From: Paraburkholderia sp.
GTDB lineage: Bacteria; Pseudomonadota; Gammaproteobacteria; Burkholderiales; Burkholderiaceae
Direction of reading: 5' to 3'
DNA length: 64,000 nt
Assembly (NCBI GenBank): GCA_031286755.1
Contig: JAITTX010000113.1
Location: 7,003-71,002 of the forward strand
The notes beneath the pieces are model-generated. The model was not told the origin of the DNA. It saw only the letters and a list, made by a program, of their open reading frames with translations, and did no database searches. Each line of letters opens with the position of its first letter. The stretch's first letter is position 1. Positions 28,537 to 32,956 of this stretch are shown piece by piece. The position numbers and the translations under genes are program-made.

Positions 28537-29643
28537 ATGTCCTTTCTATTAAATGCATGGTATGTCGCGGCATTCGCCGACGAGCTGAATGGCGCAACGC
28601 CGCTTGCGCGAACCTTGCTCGAGCGTCCCATCGTGCTGTATCGCGACGCGAAGGGGCAGGCCTGCGCACTCGACGACCGCTGCGCGCATCGTTTCGCGCC
28701 GCTCTCGTCCGGACGCGTGGTCGACGGCGTGCTCGAATCCCCGTCTCACGGCTTGCGCTTCGACGGCAGCGGTCGTTGTGTCCATAATCCGCACGGCGAC
28801 GGCCGCGTCCCCGCGCAGGCACAGGTCCGCACCTATCCCGTGCTGGAGCGTTTCGGCGCGATCTGGTTCTGGCCGGGCGATCCGCAGTGCGCCGACAGGG
28901 CGCGGCTCGCAGGATTCGATTTCGTGGATCCTGCAACCCATTTCACGCACCACGGCTATCTGAAGACCCGCGCGCATTACCAGTTGAGCGCGGACAATCT
29001 GCTCGACTTGAGCCACTTCCAGTTCCTGCATCCCGACACGCTCGGCAGCGAAGCCATTGCGCGCAGCGACGTCCAGGCGGGCAGTCTCGGCGAAACCGTG
29101 TGGGTGCGCCGGTCCGTCTTCAAGGAGACGTTGCAGCCTTTCGTCGCAAACGGCTTCGGCGTGCCGGCCGGCTCCTGCGTCGACCGCTGGATGGACGTCA
29201 AGTGGACGCCACCGGGGTTGTTGACGATCGTGGTCGGCGTGACCGCCGAGGGCACGCCGCGCGAATCCGGGCGCATCGCGCCTTCGGCGCATTGGCTCAC
29301 GCCGGAGACGGCGCGCACGACGCATTACTTCTTCGCGTTCGGCCTGCCGACGGCCATGGGCGACGCCGGGCGCGAGCTCGTGCGTTACGCCGTGGAGGGG
29401 TTGATGCGGCCTTTCGAGCGTGAGGATTTGCCGATGCTCGAGGCGCAGCAGGCGCGCATCGGCGATACGGACTTCTGGGATGCGCGGCCCGCGCTCCTGC
29501 CGATCGATCGTGGCGCGATTCGCGCGCGCCGCATCATGGAGGGGCTCATCACAGCCGAGCGCGAAGGACGGGCGCCCGGCAATGCGGGTGAGGGACATGA
29601 CAGGCGCACGATCGGGATCCGCTCCGCGTTCGAGGTTTCGTGA
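28537..29643 (+). CDS. Rieske non-heme iron oxygenase alpha subunit (VanA-like) with degenerate Rieske motif
   Basis: NAWYVAA, DRCAHR, DNLLDLSHFQFLH, FEREDLPMLEAQQ; second cluster box reads ESPSHG instead of ECPYHG. Confidence 0.85.
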   Translation: MSFLLNAWYVAAFADELNGATPLARTLLERPIVLYRDAKGQACALDDRCAHRFAPLSSGRVVDGVLESPSHGLRFDGSGRCVHNPHGDGRVPAQAQVRTYPVLERFGAIWFWPGDPQCADRARLAGFDFVDPATHFTHHGYLKTRAHYQLSADNLLDLSHFQFLHPDTLGSEAIARSDVQAGSLGETVWVRRSVFKETLQPFVANGFGVPAGSCVDRWMDVKWTPPGLLTIVVGVTAEGTPRESGRIAPSAHWLTPETARTTHYFFAFGLPTAMGDAGRELVRYAVEGLMRPFEREDLPMLEAQQARIGDTDFWDARPALLPIDRGAIRARRIMEGLITAEREGRAPGNAGEGHDRRTIGIRSAFEVS

Positions 29644-31601
29644 TGGCGAGTGTGATGGCAACCTCGTTCGAAACACTCGCGCCGGCGAGCAAGGCCGGCG
29701 CCTCGCTCAACGCCGCCTGGGCCGGCTGCATCGTCGCCGCACTCGATGCGGCCGGTGTGCGCCGCGCGGTGCTCTGCCCGGGCGGCCGGGCAAGCGCGAT
29801 GTGCCTCGCGCTCGAAAACCACGCGCGCATTGCCGCGGAAATGGTGAGCTGCGACGAGCGCAGCGGTGCATTCGTCGCGTTGGGCCTCGCGAAAGCGAGC
29901 GGCGAGCCGGTGGCCATCGTGACGACTTCGGGCTCGGCGATCGCGAACGCATTGCCGGCGCTCATGGAAGCCGACGCGAGCGATATCGCGCTGGTCGTGC
30001 TCACCTGCGATCGGCCGCGCGCGTTGCGGGGCGCGTCGTTCGGACAGATGGCCGACCATTGCGGCGCAACGCGCGCGTTCGTGCGCGCGCAGGCGGATCT
30101 CGACGATCCGCGCGACGCCCCTGATGCCGTGGAGGCGATGCGCGAGCAAGTGGCGCGGGTGTTGGCGGCCATGCTCGGCGCCGGTGGTGACGAAGCGGCG
30201 AGCCCTCGCATCGACGCGTTGCCTTCACCGTGCCGCCGCACGCGGGGTCCGGTCCATCTGAACGTGCCGCTGGCCGGGGTGTACGACGCGACGGAGGTTC
30301 AGGGCGTGTCGCCCGACGCGCTGGCAACGGCCGCGCGCGCCTGGTCGTCCGCTTGCTTCGAGCCGCATCGCAACCGCGGTGAGGCAAGCAGCCCCGGTCC
30401 GCGCGAGATCGAAGAGCGGGTCAAGCGTTTCATCGCGCGAGTGAGGGCGCGTGACGGCGCATGCCCGTCGTCGTCGGGCGGATTGGCGGGCCTGATCGTA
30501 GTGGGGGCTGAGCCTGCGGTTCCGCACGAAGCCGTGCTCGCGCTCGCGTGTATCACCGGCTTTCCGGTTGTGGCCGATGCGGCCAGCGGACTGCGCGCGC
30601 GGCACGGCGCGTTGAGCCCCGAGGCCGCGGTGCGCGGCGAGGCGGGCGCATTGATCGTCAACGCCTTCGATGTGTTCAGCGGGACGCGCCTTGCCGATGC
30701 CCGGCCCGACCTGGTGATCCGTTTCGGCATGGCGCCGGTGTTGCCCGCGCTGCATGCATGGTTCGAGTCGCACGGCAACGCGCCGACGCTGCGCATCGCA
30801 CCGTTTCCCATCGCGCACGACTATTTGCACCCCGGCCTCGATCCGCGTGACGTGCTGGTTGCGCCATCGCCGGCAACGCTGGAAGCGCTGGCCCGGGCGC
30901 TGGCGAGCGCGGTGCATGGCCGCGAGCGCGGCGGGCCGGCCGTCGCCTGGGGCTGGCGCGACCGTTGGGCGAGCGTTGCCGCCTATTCGGCGCGCGAGCG
31001 GCGCGCCTGCGTGCGCTCGCTCGCATGGGGCGAGGTCGCGGCGGTGCATCGCGTGCTGAATGCGCCTGGCTTCGCGTTCGTGCATGCGGGCAATTCCATG
31101 GCGGTCCGTCATGCCGATATCGGCTATGACGTGCGCGACAAAGCGCAGGACTTTTATACCAACCGTGGTGTCAGCGGTATCGACGGAACGCTAGCCACGT
31201 TTCTTGGCAGCGTGTTGGCGCGCCGCGATCCGGGCCTGCTCGTGCTCGGCGATCAGGCGTTCGTTCACGATCTCTGCGCCCTGGCTTCGGCGCAGCGCGT
31301 GAGCACGCCTGCCTGCGTCTGCGTGGTCGACAACGGCGGCGGCGCGATTTTCGACTTCTTGCCGGTTGCGCAGGCACCGGGTTTCAGGCGCGCGATTCGC
31401 AATCCCTATACGCTGAACTTCGCGGCAATTGCGCAGGGCTTCGGGCTGGCGCATCGGCGTGTCGATGACTTTGCCGCACTCGATGCCGCGTTGTCCGACG
31501 CGCGCGCGCACGCGGGCGTGATGCTCATCGAACTGGCTGTCGATGCGCACTCCTGCGCGACGCAGATGCAGCAGCTCGCCCGCACGGTGGGAGACGCATG
31601 A
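29640..31601 (+). CDS. MenD-like thiamine diphosphate-dependent enzyme (SEPHCHC synthase family)
   Basis: CPGGR, DERSGAF, TTSGSAIAN, DRP, GPVHLN, GNSMAVR, NRGVSGIDG, GDQAFVHD...DNGGGAIF. Confidence 0.85.
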   Translation: MMASVMATSFETLAPASKAGASLNAAWAGCIVAALDAAGVRRAVLCPGGRASAMCLALENHARIAAEMVSCDERSGAFVALGLAKASGEPVAIVTTSGSAIANALPALMEADASDIALVVLTCDRPRALRGASFGQMADHCGATRAFVRAQADLDDPRDAPDAVEAMREQVARVLAAMLGAGGDEAASPRIDALPSPCRRTRGPVHLNVPLAGVYDATEVQGVSPDALATAARAWSSACFEPHRNRGEASSPGPREIEERVKRFIARVRARDGACPSSSGGLAGLIVVGAEPAVPHEAVLALACITGFPVVADAASGLRARHGALSPEAAVRGEAGALIVNAFDVFSGTRLADARPDLVIRFGMAPVLPALHAWFESHGNAPTLRIAPFPIAHDYLHPGLDPRDVLVAPSPATLEALARALASAVHGRERGGPAVAWGWRDRWASVAAYSARERRACVRSLAWGEVAAVHRVLNAPGFAFVHAGNSMAVRHADIGYDVRDKAQDFYTNRGVSGIDGTLATFLGSVLARRDPGLLVLGDQAFVHDLCALASAQRVSTPACVCVVDNGGGAIFDFLPVAQAPGFRRAIRNPYTLNFAAIAQGFGLAHRRVDDFAALDAALSDARAHAGVMLIELAVDAHSCATQMQQLARTVGDA

Positions 31602-32956
31602 TGGACTGGCCGCAATTCGACGATCCCGTGCGCCGCTCCCATCGCGCGCTGCATCGCTACGCGAGTGCGCCCGAGCCCGACGCGGTGTTCCTGGACGACA
31701 TGCAGGCGCGCATCGATGCCGCGCGGCGCGCGGGGCGCCCGCGCGTGCGCGACACCCGCGCCGCGCCGCGCGTCTTGCTGCTCGGCTACCACGGCGCGGG
31801 CAACACGGGGGCCGATCTGCGCACGATCGAAACCATCGCGCAACTGCGCCGGCTGTTTGCGCCGCGCGAACCCGAGTTCACGCTCTTCGCGCTCGGCGAC
31901 CTGTTCGATCACGAAGTGCTCGCGAGCACGCCCAAGCTCGTGCCGGCGTTGCCTTATGTGCCGGACGCGCTGGATGCGGCAATCGGCGAGGCGGATATCG
32001 TCATCAATATCGAAGGCTCGACCTATACGTCGAAATTCTCCGATTCGTTGGCGGGAATCCTGATTGGCGGCGTCGCGCTCGCCCGTGCATATGGTCTGCC
32101 GGCGATTGCGTATGGCGTCGATAGCGGCACGATGAGCGAGCCGTTAACGCGCTTCGTCAGGCGCAACGCCGCGCAAGGCGGTCACGTCATGTGCCGCAAC
32201 GCTCAAGCGCGCGCACATCTGCGCGAGCTGGGCGTCGCGAGCATGGCGGGCGCCGATGCGGCATGGACGTGGCAGGCGCGCGGCGCGCGGCGCGCTTCGC
32301 GCGGGGCGGCGCTGTGCCTCGCGAATCCGTACTGGTGGCCCGTTTGCGCGGATGCCGCGCGCTCGCGCGCACTCGATGCGAGCGGCGAGATTTCGCCATA
32401 CCGCTATGGGTTGCTGCATTTTCACAGCTGGGACGCGCAACGTGCGAATGCGTACGACGCTTATTTGAAGCGCTTCGCGGCAATCGCAACACGGTTGCGC
32501 GCGCGCGGCTACACGCCGGTGATCGTCGGCATGGAGCAGGTCGACCGTGCCGCGTGCAGGGATCTCGCGGCGCGCCTGCCTTTCGATACCGAATGCGTGG
32601 TGCGCGGGGAGGGCACGCTCGATGAAGTGGCCAGTGCGGTCGCGCAGGCGCAATGCGTGGTGACCACGCGCTATCACGCCGCCTTGCTCGCGATATCGCA
32701 CAGCGTGCCGGTATTCGGGGTGTCGATGGATACGCGCATCGACCGCCTGTTGTGCGAGGCGAAATGCGAAGCGTGGCTGGCGAGCTGCGATGCGGACGAT
32801 GCCGTGCGGCGCTGTCTCGATGCGATCGATACGCTGGAGGACGCGCAAACGCGGGACGTGTTGAGGGTACGGCACGCGGAGTATGCGCAACGGCAACGGG
32901 AATGCATGGACTCCATGGGGACGCGCCTGATGGCGATAATCGACGCGGGAAAGTAG
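31598..32956 (+). CDS. Polysaccharide pyruvyl transferase family protein
   Basis: VLLLGYHGAGNTGAD start motif, AYGVDSG, CRN, ADAAW, VVTTRYHA; start overlaps the upstream stop (ATGA). Confidence 0.7.
   Translation: MMDWPQFDDPVRRSHRALHRYASAPEPDAVFLDDMQARIDAARRAGRPRVRDTRAAPRVLLLGYHGAGNTGADLRTIETIAQLRRLFAPREPEFTLFALGDLFDHEVLASTPKLVPALPYVPDALDAAIGEADIVINIEGSTYTSKFSDSLAGILIGGVALARAYGLPAIAYGVDSGTMSEPLTRFVRRNAAQGGHVMCRNAQARAHLRELGVASMAGADAAWTWQARGARRASRGAALCLANPYWWPVCADAARSRALDASGEISPYRYGLLHFHSWDAQRANAYDAYLKRFAAIATRLRARGYTPVIVGMEQVDRAACRDLAARLPFDTECVVRGEGTLDEVASAVAQAQCVVTTRYHAALLAISHSVPVFGVSMDTRIDRLLCEAKCEAWLASCDADDAVRRCLDAIDTLEDAQTRDVLRVRHAEYAQRQRECMDSMGTRLMAIIDAGK

Follow-up and report, generated by a model that had tools for sequence, protein, structure and literature searches.

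What would a three-enzyme operon make inside a type III secretion system (T3SS) island? The question is raised by the window analysed here, a stretch of 64,000 nucleotides from Paraburkholderia sp. (assembly GCA_031286755.1, contig JAITTX010000113.1, positions 7,003 to 71,002), which encodes a complete Hrp2-type apparatus and, at positions 28537–32956, three co-oriented open reading frames (ORFs). By ORF calls and profile searches, these are genes of a VanA/DdmC-type Rieske oxygenase with Rieske and VanA_C domains (28537..29643, plus strand), a MenD-like thiamine diphosphate (ThDP) enzyme of the MgpL-related clade (29640..31601, plus strand, start at 29640 or 29643) and a PF04230 protein, predicted to be a phosphoenolpyruvate (PEP)-dependent member of the pyruvyltransferase family and kin of MgpK and of dxp/cpl-type enzymes (31598..32956, plus strand). 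The analysis confirms the operon and shows a strong, conserved T3SS link. As to function, sequence comparison tilts us slightly towards the reading that the operon likely attaches an ether of 2-hydroxy-4-oxoheptanedioate (Hoha) to an acceptor, probably a methoxy-aromatic one, at a hydroxyl likely unmasked by the Rieske enzyme.

The first-pass annotation of this DNA had proposed a T3SS-linked small-molecule pathway, distinct from menaquinone and polysaccharide synthesis, and the results support this. It had also called the combination undescribed, which stands for the T3SS-linked form: no paper on it was found in literature searches and in PMC8565462 (text and supplements) and PMC6294378, with subscription papers and the mgp/dxp supplements outside their scope. 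It does not stand for the MenD and transferase pair, which is the MgpL/MgpK pair described in the text of PMC11411415; the core chemistry has named precedent outside T3SS.

Operon structure and linkage to the type III secretion system

The overlaps GTGA (29640–29643) and ATGA (31598–31601) are present in the sequence, as the first-pass annotation stated. A search for related loci in a set of genome contigs found one locus. The MenD-like protein was matched in 27 of 213 genomes of the genus and in 23 of 396 scored genomes of the family (5 of 29 genera; five genomes were unscored), and the protein names of the matches are those of Paraburkholderia, Trinickia and Robbsia. All 43 loci from both searches were mapped, together with one canonical men control; L021 duplicates L064. 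Homologues lie mostly beside T3SS genes and not away from them, since 36 of the 43 MenD-like loci were found no further than about 45 kb from Hrp2 sct genes. These 36 show four arrangements: divergence from hrpG next to sctC (25 loci), a position between hrpB7 and sctT within the hrpB apparatus operon (five), a position facing sctT (one) and a place near an hrpB-type regulator in an island of T3SS and type IV pilus genes, where extended maps put five loci at 30–45 kb from the sct genes. Four further loci near an hrpB-type regulator showed no link to sct genes. Loci L088 and L089 are polyketide synthase/nonribosomal peptide synthetase (PKS/NRPS) clusters of the megapolipeptin (mgp) type. Locus L100 is a lone MenD gene with a PIP box; its interpretation as a relic was rejected, as Rieske and transferase genes were found beside hrpG on another replicon of the same genome.

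Hrp2 SctV is encoded in all 27 MenD-positive genomes of the genus, against a base rate of 70 of 213, and in all 38 Rieske-positive genomes, orthologues being defined by 60% identity or more (next match in the genus, 43%). Presence is nested: 38 genomes have the Rieske gene, 28 of them also the T3SS-type transferase, 25 of these MenD and 20 of the latter a luciferase-like monooxygenase (LLM), two mgp genomes, which also carry unlinked LLM genes, having been set aside. The module is no fixed trio, as the Rieske gene can stand alone or in trans and LLM is a frequent fourth partner. Rieske and transferase genes without MenD occur in three genomes, and in all five tested genomes lacking a Rieske gene next to the pair it was found elsewhere, LLM being present in none. 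In the tree, in-operon copies nest inside hrpG-adjacent copies, which suggests relocation within T3SS islands. Values of dN/dS are 0.10–0.25 for all three genes in four pairs, like those of T3SS genes. A hitchhiking catabolic remnant with no functional T3SS tie would account for the patchy distribution, for signs of decay in the window and for two Rieske plus transferase loci about 150 kb from sctV, but the four arrangements within T3SS islands, the Hrp-type promoter motifs in each of them and the purifying selection make it the least credible of the explanations considered.

MenD-like protein and pyruvyltransferase-family protein

The window MenD-like protein passes TIGR00173 (249.7 bits, cut-off 244.2), as does the mgp-type protein (293.7 bits), and is matched at E 1e-86 to the L088 protein and at E 9e-48 to E. 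coli MenD. In a tree of 77 of 89 rows, made by a quick method with partial and near-duplicate rows dropped, T3SS and mgp MenDs form one branch (support 100) apart from canonical MenD. The alignment shows that catalytic Glu55 and the ThDP/Mg motif are kept, and the 2-oxoglutarate residues Ser391/Arg395/Arg413/Asp442/Asn469 are kept in 42 of 42 T3SS-clade rows. Position 292 is Pro in all 42 rows in place of Lys292, which binds the isochorismate side chain in true MenD, and position 32 is Gly or Ala in the 38 of 38 rows that cover it (Ser32 to Gly in the window). Lys or Arg is present at position 292 in over 90% of MenDs (PMC2914249). Among 80 metagenome MenD loci, many of them short, the three with a transferase neighbour were the only ones seen without both Ser32 and Lys/Arg292.

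A true SEPHCHC synthase, serving a cryptic menaquinone step or as a sink for host isochorismate, would fit the score above the TIGR00173 cut-off and the retention of Arg33, Arg107, Gln118 and the Ile/Phe/Leu patch. This explanation is highly improbable: the same model accepts the mgp-type protein, Ser32 and Lys292 are lost, and the N-termini, being short, variable and acidic, do not resemble those of effectors. The earlier observation of a MenD without men partners was upheld at genome level, where no menF, menC or menH orthologue was found (599 contigs, 86% complete) and both proteins that bind chorismate were identified, as TrpE and PabB. Neither an isochorismate synthase nor further men genes turned up in this genome or in 81 loci. 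The protein has the catalytic Glu, the ThDP/Mg motif, the 2-oxoglutarate arginines and, putatively, the Stetter-type addition in common with MenD as described in PMC2914249, and differs from it in the Lys292 to Pro exchange and the separate clade; no men pathway or isochorismate source was found. A further MenD-like clade (P0088–P0111; SRN motif, Arg292), partly named Planctomycetota, falls between canonical MenD and the Mgp clade and has no transferase neighbour in related metagenome loci.

The transferase has a PF04230 domain and a predicted structure (predicted local distance difference test 93) with a GT-B fold; Foldseek with this model retrieved only generic GT-B proteins (TM about 0.4–0.5), and no solved structure matching by sequence was found. 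It is 32% identical to the L088 protein (E 1e-62). The enzymes DxpH/ChtnH and CplI belong to the same subfamily, are PEP-dependent and add 70.005 Da to a small molecule; unlike the reaction proposed here, theirs makes a ketal on a 1,3-diol and proceeds without MenD (PMC12964715, PMC13291983, PMC8313283). In a profile search, Chromobacterium members rank directly below the T3SS transferase clade.

Modification of a T3SS protein or a surface polymer (pilus, harpin, lipopolysaccharide or exopolysaccharide), like that by a flagellin modification island, would agree with the five loci inside the apparatus operon, with TylF-like, JmjC and GNAT genes nearby, with glycans as the usual targets of PF04230 proteins and with the lack of an exporter accompanying the module. 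It is quite unlikely, given that no glycosyltransferase or flippase genes were found among annotated neighbours and that the transferase is far from the polysaccharide pyruvyltransferases WcaK (no phmmer match at E 1; blastp E 0.007) and CsaB (67.8 bits, below the cut-off of 213); the substrates of VanA-type Rieske enzymes are, moreover, small molecules. The PF04230 domain and the modelled GT-B fold are common to WcaK, CsaB and this transferase, but the latter is not orthologous to them and, as was noted at first, does not stand in a polysaccharide locus. Two natural fusions were also observed, of transferase with MenD (P0300) and of transferase with an AMP-binding enzyme (P0263). Locus L152:105-8758 is a Pfa/NRPS cluster of the order pfaC-pfaD-transferase-LLM-MenD, its LLM being 47% identical to the T3SS one, and is a candidate producer of a Hoha lipid with additional modification.

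The nearest characterised kin of the window pair are of the MgpK/MgpL type. To our knowledge, the seven-carbon keto-diacid ether chemistry has so far been seen only on a lipopeptide. In megapolipeptin, Hoha is joined as an ether through C2 to a lipid hydroxyl, both carboxyls being free, and the MgpK/MgpL pair was proposed to make this ether (PMC11411415). Locus L088 with L111/L112 reproduces the mgp gene and domain order given in that text, and both proteins of the L088 pair belong to clusters that bear the names of P. megapolitana and P. acidicola, the species that make megapolipeptin. Both systems have homologous adjacent transferase and MenD-like genes, the loss of Ser32 and Lys292 and one tree branch; the T3SS loci examined differ in having no polyunsaturated fatty acid synthase/PKS/NRPS scaffold or acyl-CoA ligase, in the order MenD-transferase with the Rieske gene leading, and in their position inside an Hrp2 T3SS island. 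An initial idea based on dihydroxypentanoate ethers of O-antigens was dropped, as a literature search matched no paper.

Rieske oxygenase

The best PDB match of the window Rieske protein is DdmC (E 7.5e-68), and the enzyme is likely an O-demethylase or hydroxylase. The iron triad His160/His165/Asp297 and bridging Asp157 are kept in 52 of 52 aligned rows, as is a pocket of Leu158, Thr168, Arg217, Ser250 and His252. Compared with DdmC/VanA-type O-demethylases, the domains and mononuclear iron ligands are the same, but the gene has Hrp-type promoters and no linked reductase, and the pocket is the protein's own. Its nearest sisters outside T3SS islands (46–51% identity, with Arg217 and His252 in common) sit in ferulate/aromatic catabolic loci with reductases; one adjoins genes of hydroxycinnamoyl-CoA lyase, aldehyde dehydrogenase and a reductase, and another lies among aromatic-acid transporter and ring-cleavage genes. 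By analogy with these loci, a methoxy-aromatic acid would be the best guess for the acceptor. VanB-type reductase homologues are encoded elsewhere in the genome of the window (best 56%).

In the window, the motif reads ESPSHG, with both Cys68, the third Fe-S ligand of the CxH...CxxH set, and Tyr70 replaced by Ser, a state unique among the 52 aligned rows; Cys and Tyr are kept in the other 51. Both residues are also present in a contig of run X1 (depth 10, about 99.8% identical here), which over 7.5 kb differs from the window at 17 listed places and by a 12-base duplication; run X1 is by its record a termite gut metagenome and is possibly the source sample, hence not independent. Another run, X2, gave only scattered pieces. 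A new Ser-ligated type of Rieske protein was rejected on these grounds, and Ser68/Ser70 come either from an error in the assembly or from a lesion that the strain acquired recently. Genomes of the genus g27 (L255–L258), small and of lower GC, carry two to three copies of a sister Rieske gene (47–49%), and no T3SS gene was called in 15-kb windows around them.

Promoters and regulation

The AT-rich spacer between the operon and hrpG that the first-pass annotation described (28045..28536) measures 492 nt, with a GC content of 47.8% against about 66% around it; hrpG itself (27034..28044, minus strand) encodes, by domain searches, an HrpG-like OmpR-family regulator. The plant-inducible promoter (PIP, hrpII) box, searched for as TTCGB-N15-TTCGB plus a -10 element, precedes 6 of 3891 called genes in the genome, all on the T3SS contig. 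In relatives it was found before the operon in 6 of 9 hrpB-side loci, before all seven stand-alone Rieske copies examined away from hrpG and before the Rieske gene in each of five genomes where this gene is not next to the pair; it is absent from the window operon and hrpG-adjacent loci. The hrpG-adjacent copies carry a motif, T(C/G)AG-N-TT-N2-TTGAA-N21-TA(C/G)A(C/T)T, common with hrpB promoters, and motif comparison places the corresponding hrpB promoter motif of the window, TCAG-N3-WATTGA(A)-N21-TACATT, at 23532..23572 (plus strand), in the form common with Rieske promoters of relatives. With a matrix trained on 20 hrpB promoters, 18 of 25 hrpG-adjacent Rieske promoters outscored all background genes except hrpB, and 22 of 25 ranked in the top 0.31%. 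The window spacer is without the proximal box and -10 found in relatives and keeps the distal TCAGATTTTTTGAG repeat (28379–28392) and a one-mismatch PIP-like site (28401–28425). The PIP box with -10 was found before LLM in 0 of 25 cases, DUF3455 in 0 of 26, JmjC in 0 of 7, GNAT in 0 of 8 and TylF in 1 of 14, start calls being rough, and a scan for sigma-70 promoters and terminators gave nothing above shuffles.

HrpG is the likely binder of the motif common with hrpB promoters, by analogy with the direct control of hrpX by HrpG in Xanthomonas (PMC7831014), but in B. glumae hrpB is also bound by GluR (PMC9452761). Co-regulation of the operon with the T3SS is very probable across the clade, to judge from these promoters, and the operon looks like regulon output. 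Since HrpB boxes or the hrpB-promoter motif are found in the promoters, output is more likely than the signal to HrpG suggested earlier. More broadly, a product that signals to HrpG, as input or as feedback, or an operon removing hrp-repressing plant phenolics, would suit the divergence of 26 loci from hrpG; plant phenolics are said to lower T3SS expression. Both versions are very unlikely, as the promoter motifs put the genes downstream of the regulators and, of the 70 genomes of the genus that encode SctV, 32 do not contain even the Rieske gene.

Proposed pathway

Hoha-type chemistry by the MenD-like protein and the transferase is probable from the kinship and conserved residues described above, and we favour, modestly, the Rieske enzyme as the supplier of the acceptor hydroxyl. 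In the first step, the Rieske enzyme, with a reductase borrowed in trans, would O-demethylate or hydroxylate the acceptor. In the second, modelled on DxpH and CplI, the transferase would move enolpyruvate from PEP to the hydroxyl (+70.005 Da), and an enol ether of the acrylate type would form. In the third, suggested by the structure of Hoha and by the residues that are kept, the ThDP enzyme would decarboxylate 2-oxoglutarate and attach its succinyl unit to the CH2 of the enol ether in a Stetter addition (+172.037 Da in total). A fourth step is a guess: the luciferase-like enzyme of most relatives, whose gene is missing in the window, might reduce or oxidise the 4-keto group. Expression is predicted to rise with the T3SS. 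The mass sum of enolpyruvyl (70.005) and succinic semialdehyde (102.032), 172.037, equals the Hoha ether skeleton. Action of the transferase first is favoured because DxpH transfers the group in vitro from PEP alone (PMC12964715), a cplI mutant loses 70.005 Da and four T3SS-type loci retain the transferase without MenD.

The same Hoha chemistry could instead target an aliphatic hydroxyl or that of a lipid, for instance of a hydroxy fatty acid, an envelope lipid or a lipid of the host; the Rieske enzyme would then share the regulation but serve separately, for example in phenolic detoxification. The relatives characterised so far all modify hydroxyls in lipid chains, 10 genomes have the Rieske gene on its own, and the pair and the Rieske gene are unlinked in six. 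This alternative has some weight but is unlikely, in view of the transferase never occurring without a Rieske orthologue in the genus (28 of 28), the Rieske-transferase coupling kept without MenD in four loci, and T3SS loci in which acyl-CoA ligase, carrier protein and PKS were not found.

Several points weigh against an aryl Hoha ether made by the three enzymes together. The role of MgpK/MgpL is itself a proposal, in which the order is opposite, MenD acting on PEP first (PMC11411415); identity to this pair is only 32–35%, and the known acceptors are aliphatic hydroxyls, not phenols. The isochorismate residues Arg33/Arg107 are kept, and could hold the acrylate carboxylate; mutation of B. subtilis MenD Lys299, equivalent to Lys292, had little effect on the reaction, with an 8-fold change in the Michaelis constant (PMC2914249). 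A linked VanB-type reductase gene was found in none of the 81 loci searched, and the solitary Rieske genes, which in those 10 genomes stand beside hrpG, may work separately. Locus L095, with Rieske and MenD genes and no transferase, is the one exception to the nesting order, and the counts are overstated, the relatives not being independent. In the window, the LLM gene is absent, the Rieske Fe-S ligand Cys68 is Ser and the operon promoter motif is eroded (score -3.4, 6.7% of background genes scoring as high); this genome's copy of the operon may be decaying. It is a poor model of the operon, whereas the P. tropica locus (L021) is intact, with LLM present.

Other genes of the window and related loci

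The left flank carries hrpB (AraC family) and the sctC secretin gene (23625..26973, plus strand), and the right flank (33057..35089) a DUF3455 gene, a Gly/Gln-rich ORF and an HrpB1 paralogue. The T3SS flanks reported at first were found on both sides, with the reservation that the 183-aa 'harpin-like' ORF, Gly/Gln-rich, Cys-free and without a Pfam or NCBIfam match, is harpin-like by composition only. The LLM gene that precedes DUF3455 in relatives is absent from this flank; a 12-base duplication at 33038 is absent from the run X1 contig. Directly right of the island, at 35248–43718, lies an aromatic catabolic cluster (IclR, FAD monooxygenase, porin, major facilitator superfamily transporter, two amidohydrolases, RraA-like aldolase), not seen at related loci, which we take to resemble protocatechuate 4,5-cleavage genes.

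At the other end of the window, a GNAT acetyltransferase gene (5126–5749, minus strand) has a perfect PIP box at 5891, and its homologues adjoin hrpB and the trio in several relatives. An ORF without a Pfam match (2–1525, minus strand) lies behind a PIP box (1619) and is a likely effector gene; it adjoins a gene of a STAND NTPase with an OmpR-type DNA-binding domain (1606–4935, minus strand). Recurrent tailoring genes at the T3SS edge of related loci (L065–L087, L129–L143) encode TylF-like methyltransferase, JmjC cupin, P450, methyltransferase with APH kinase, and CHAP protein. Two tandem hrpG paralogues with a CHRD-domain gene between them were found in L073, L075 and L078, and hybrid islands with Hrp2 T3SS, type IV pilus genes and two secretins in L113–L120 and L124.

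Significance

The Ralstonia hdf operon is reportedly induced by HrpB and makes a 3-hydroxy-oxindole; it is likewise a small-molecule pathway inside an Hrp2 regulon, unlike the present one in that its enzymes are reportedly unrelated and that here the genes lie in the T3SS island itself. The proposed chemistry would make the operon described here a new pathway to a host-interaction metabolite, likely turned on together with the injection machine. As a tentative extension, a pathway of the Hrp2 regulon of these soil and plant bacteria might capture a host methoxy-phenolic, demethylate it and, by ThDP-dependent Stetter addition to an enolpyruvyl ether, cap it as an aryl Hoha ether, a new host-manipulating or defence-neutralising product deployed with effector injection.

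If true, the proposed pathway would extend MenD-type Stetter chemistry to enol ethers, and the stand-alone pair would be a simple system for settling Hoha synthesis, only proposed for megapolipeptin. Genes of this clade that are annotated as 'menD', in genomes with no other men genes, are likely mis-annotated. What the T3SS does in non-pathogenic Paraburkholderia and Trinickia is little understood, and a conserved metabolite pathway would give exact masses, +70.005 and +172.037, for its study.

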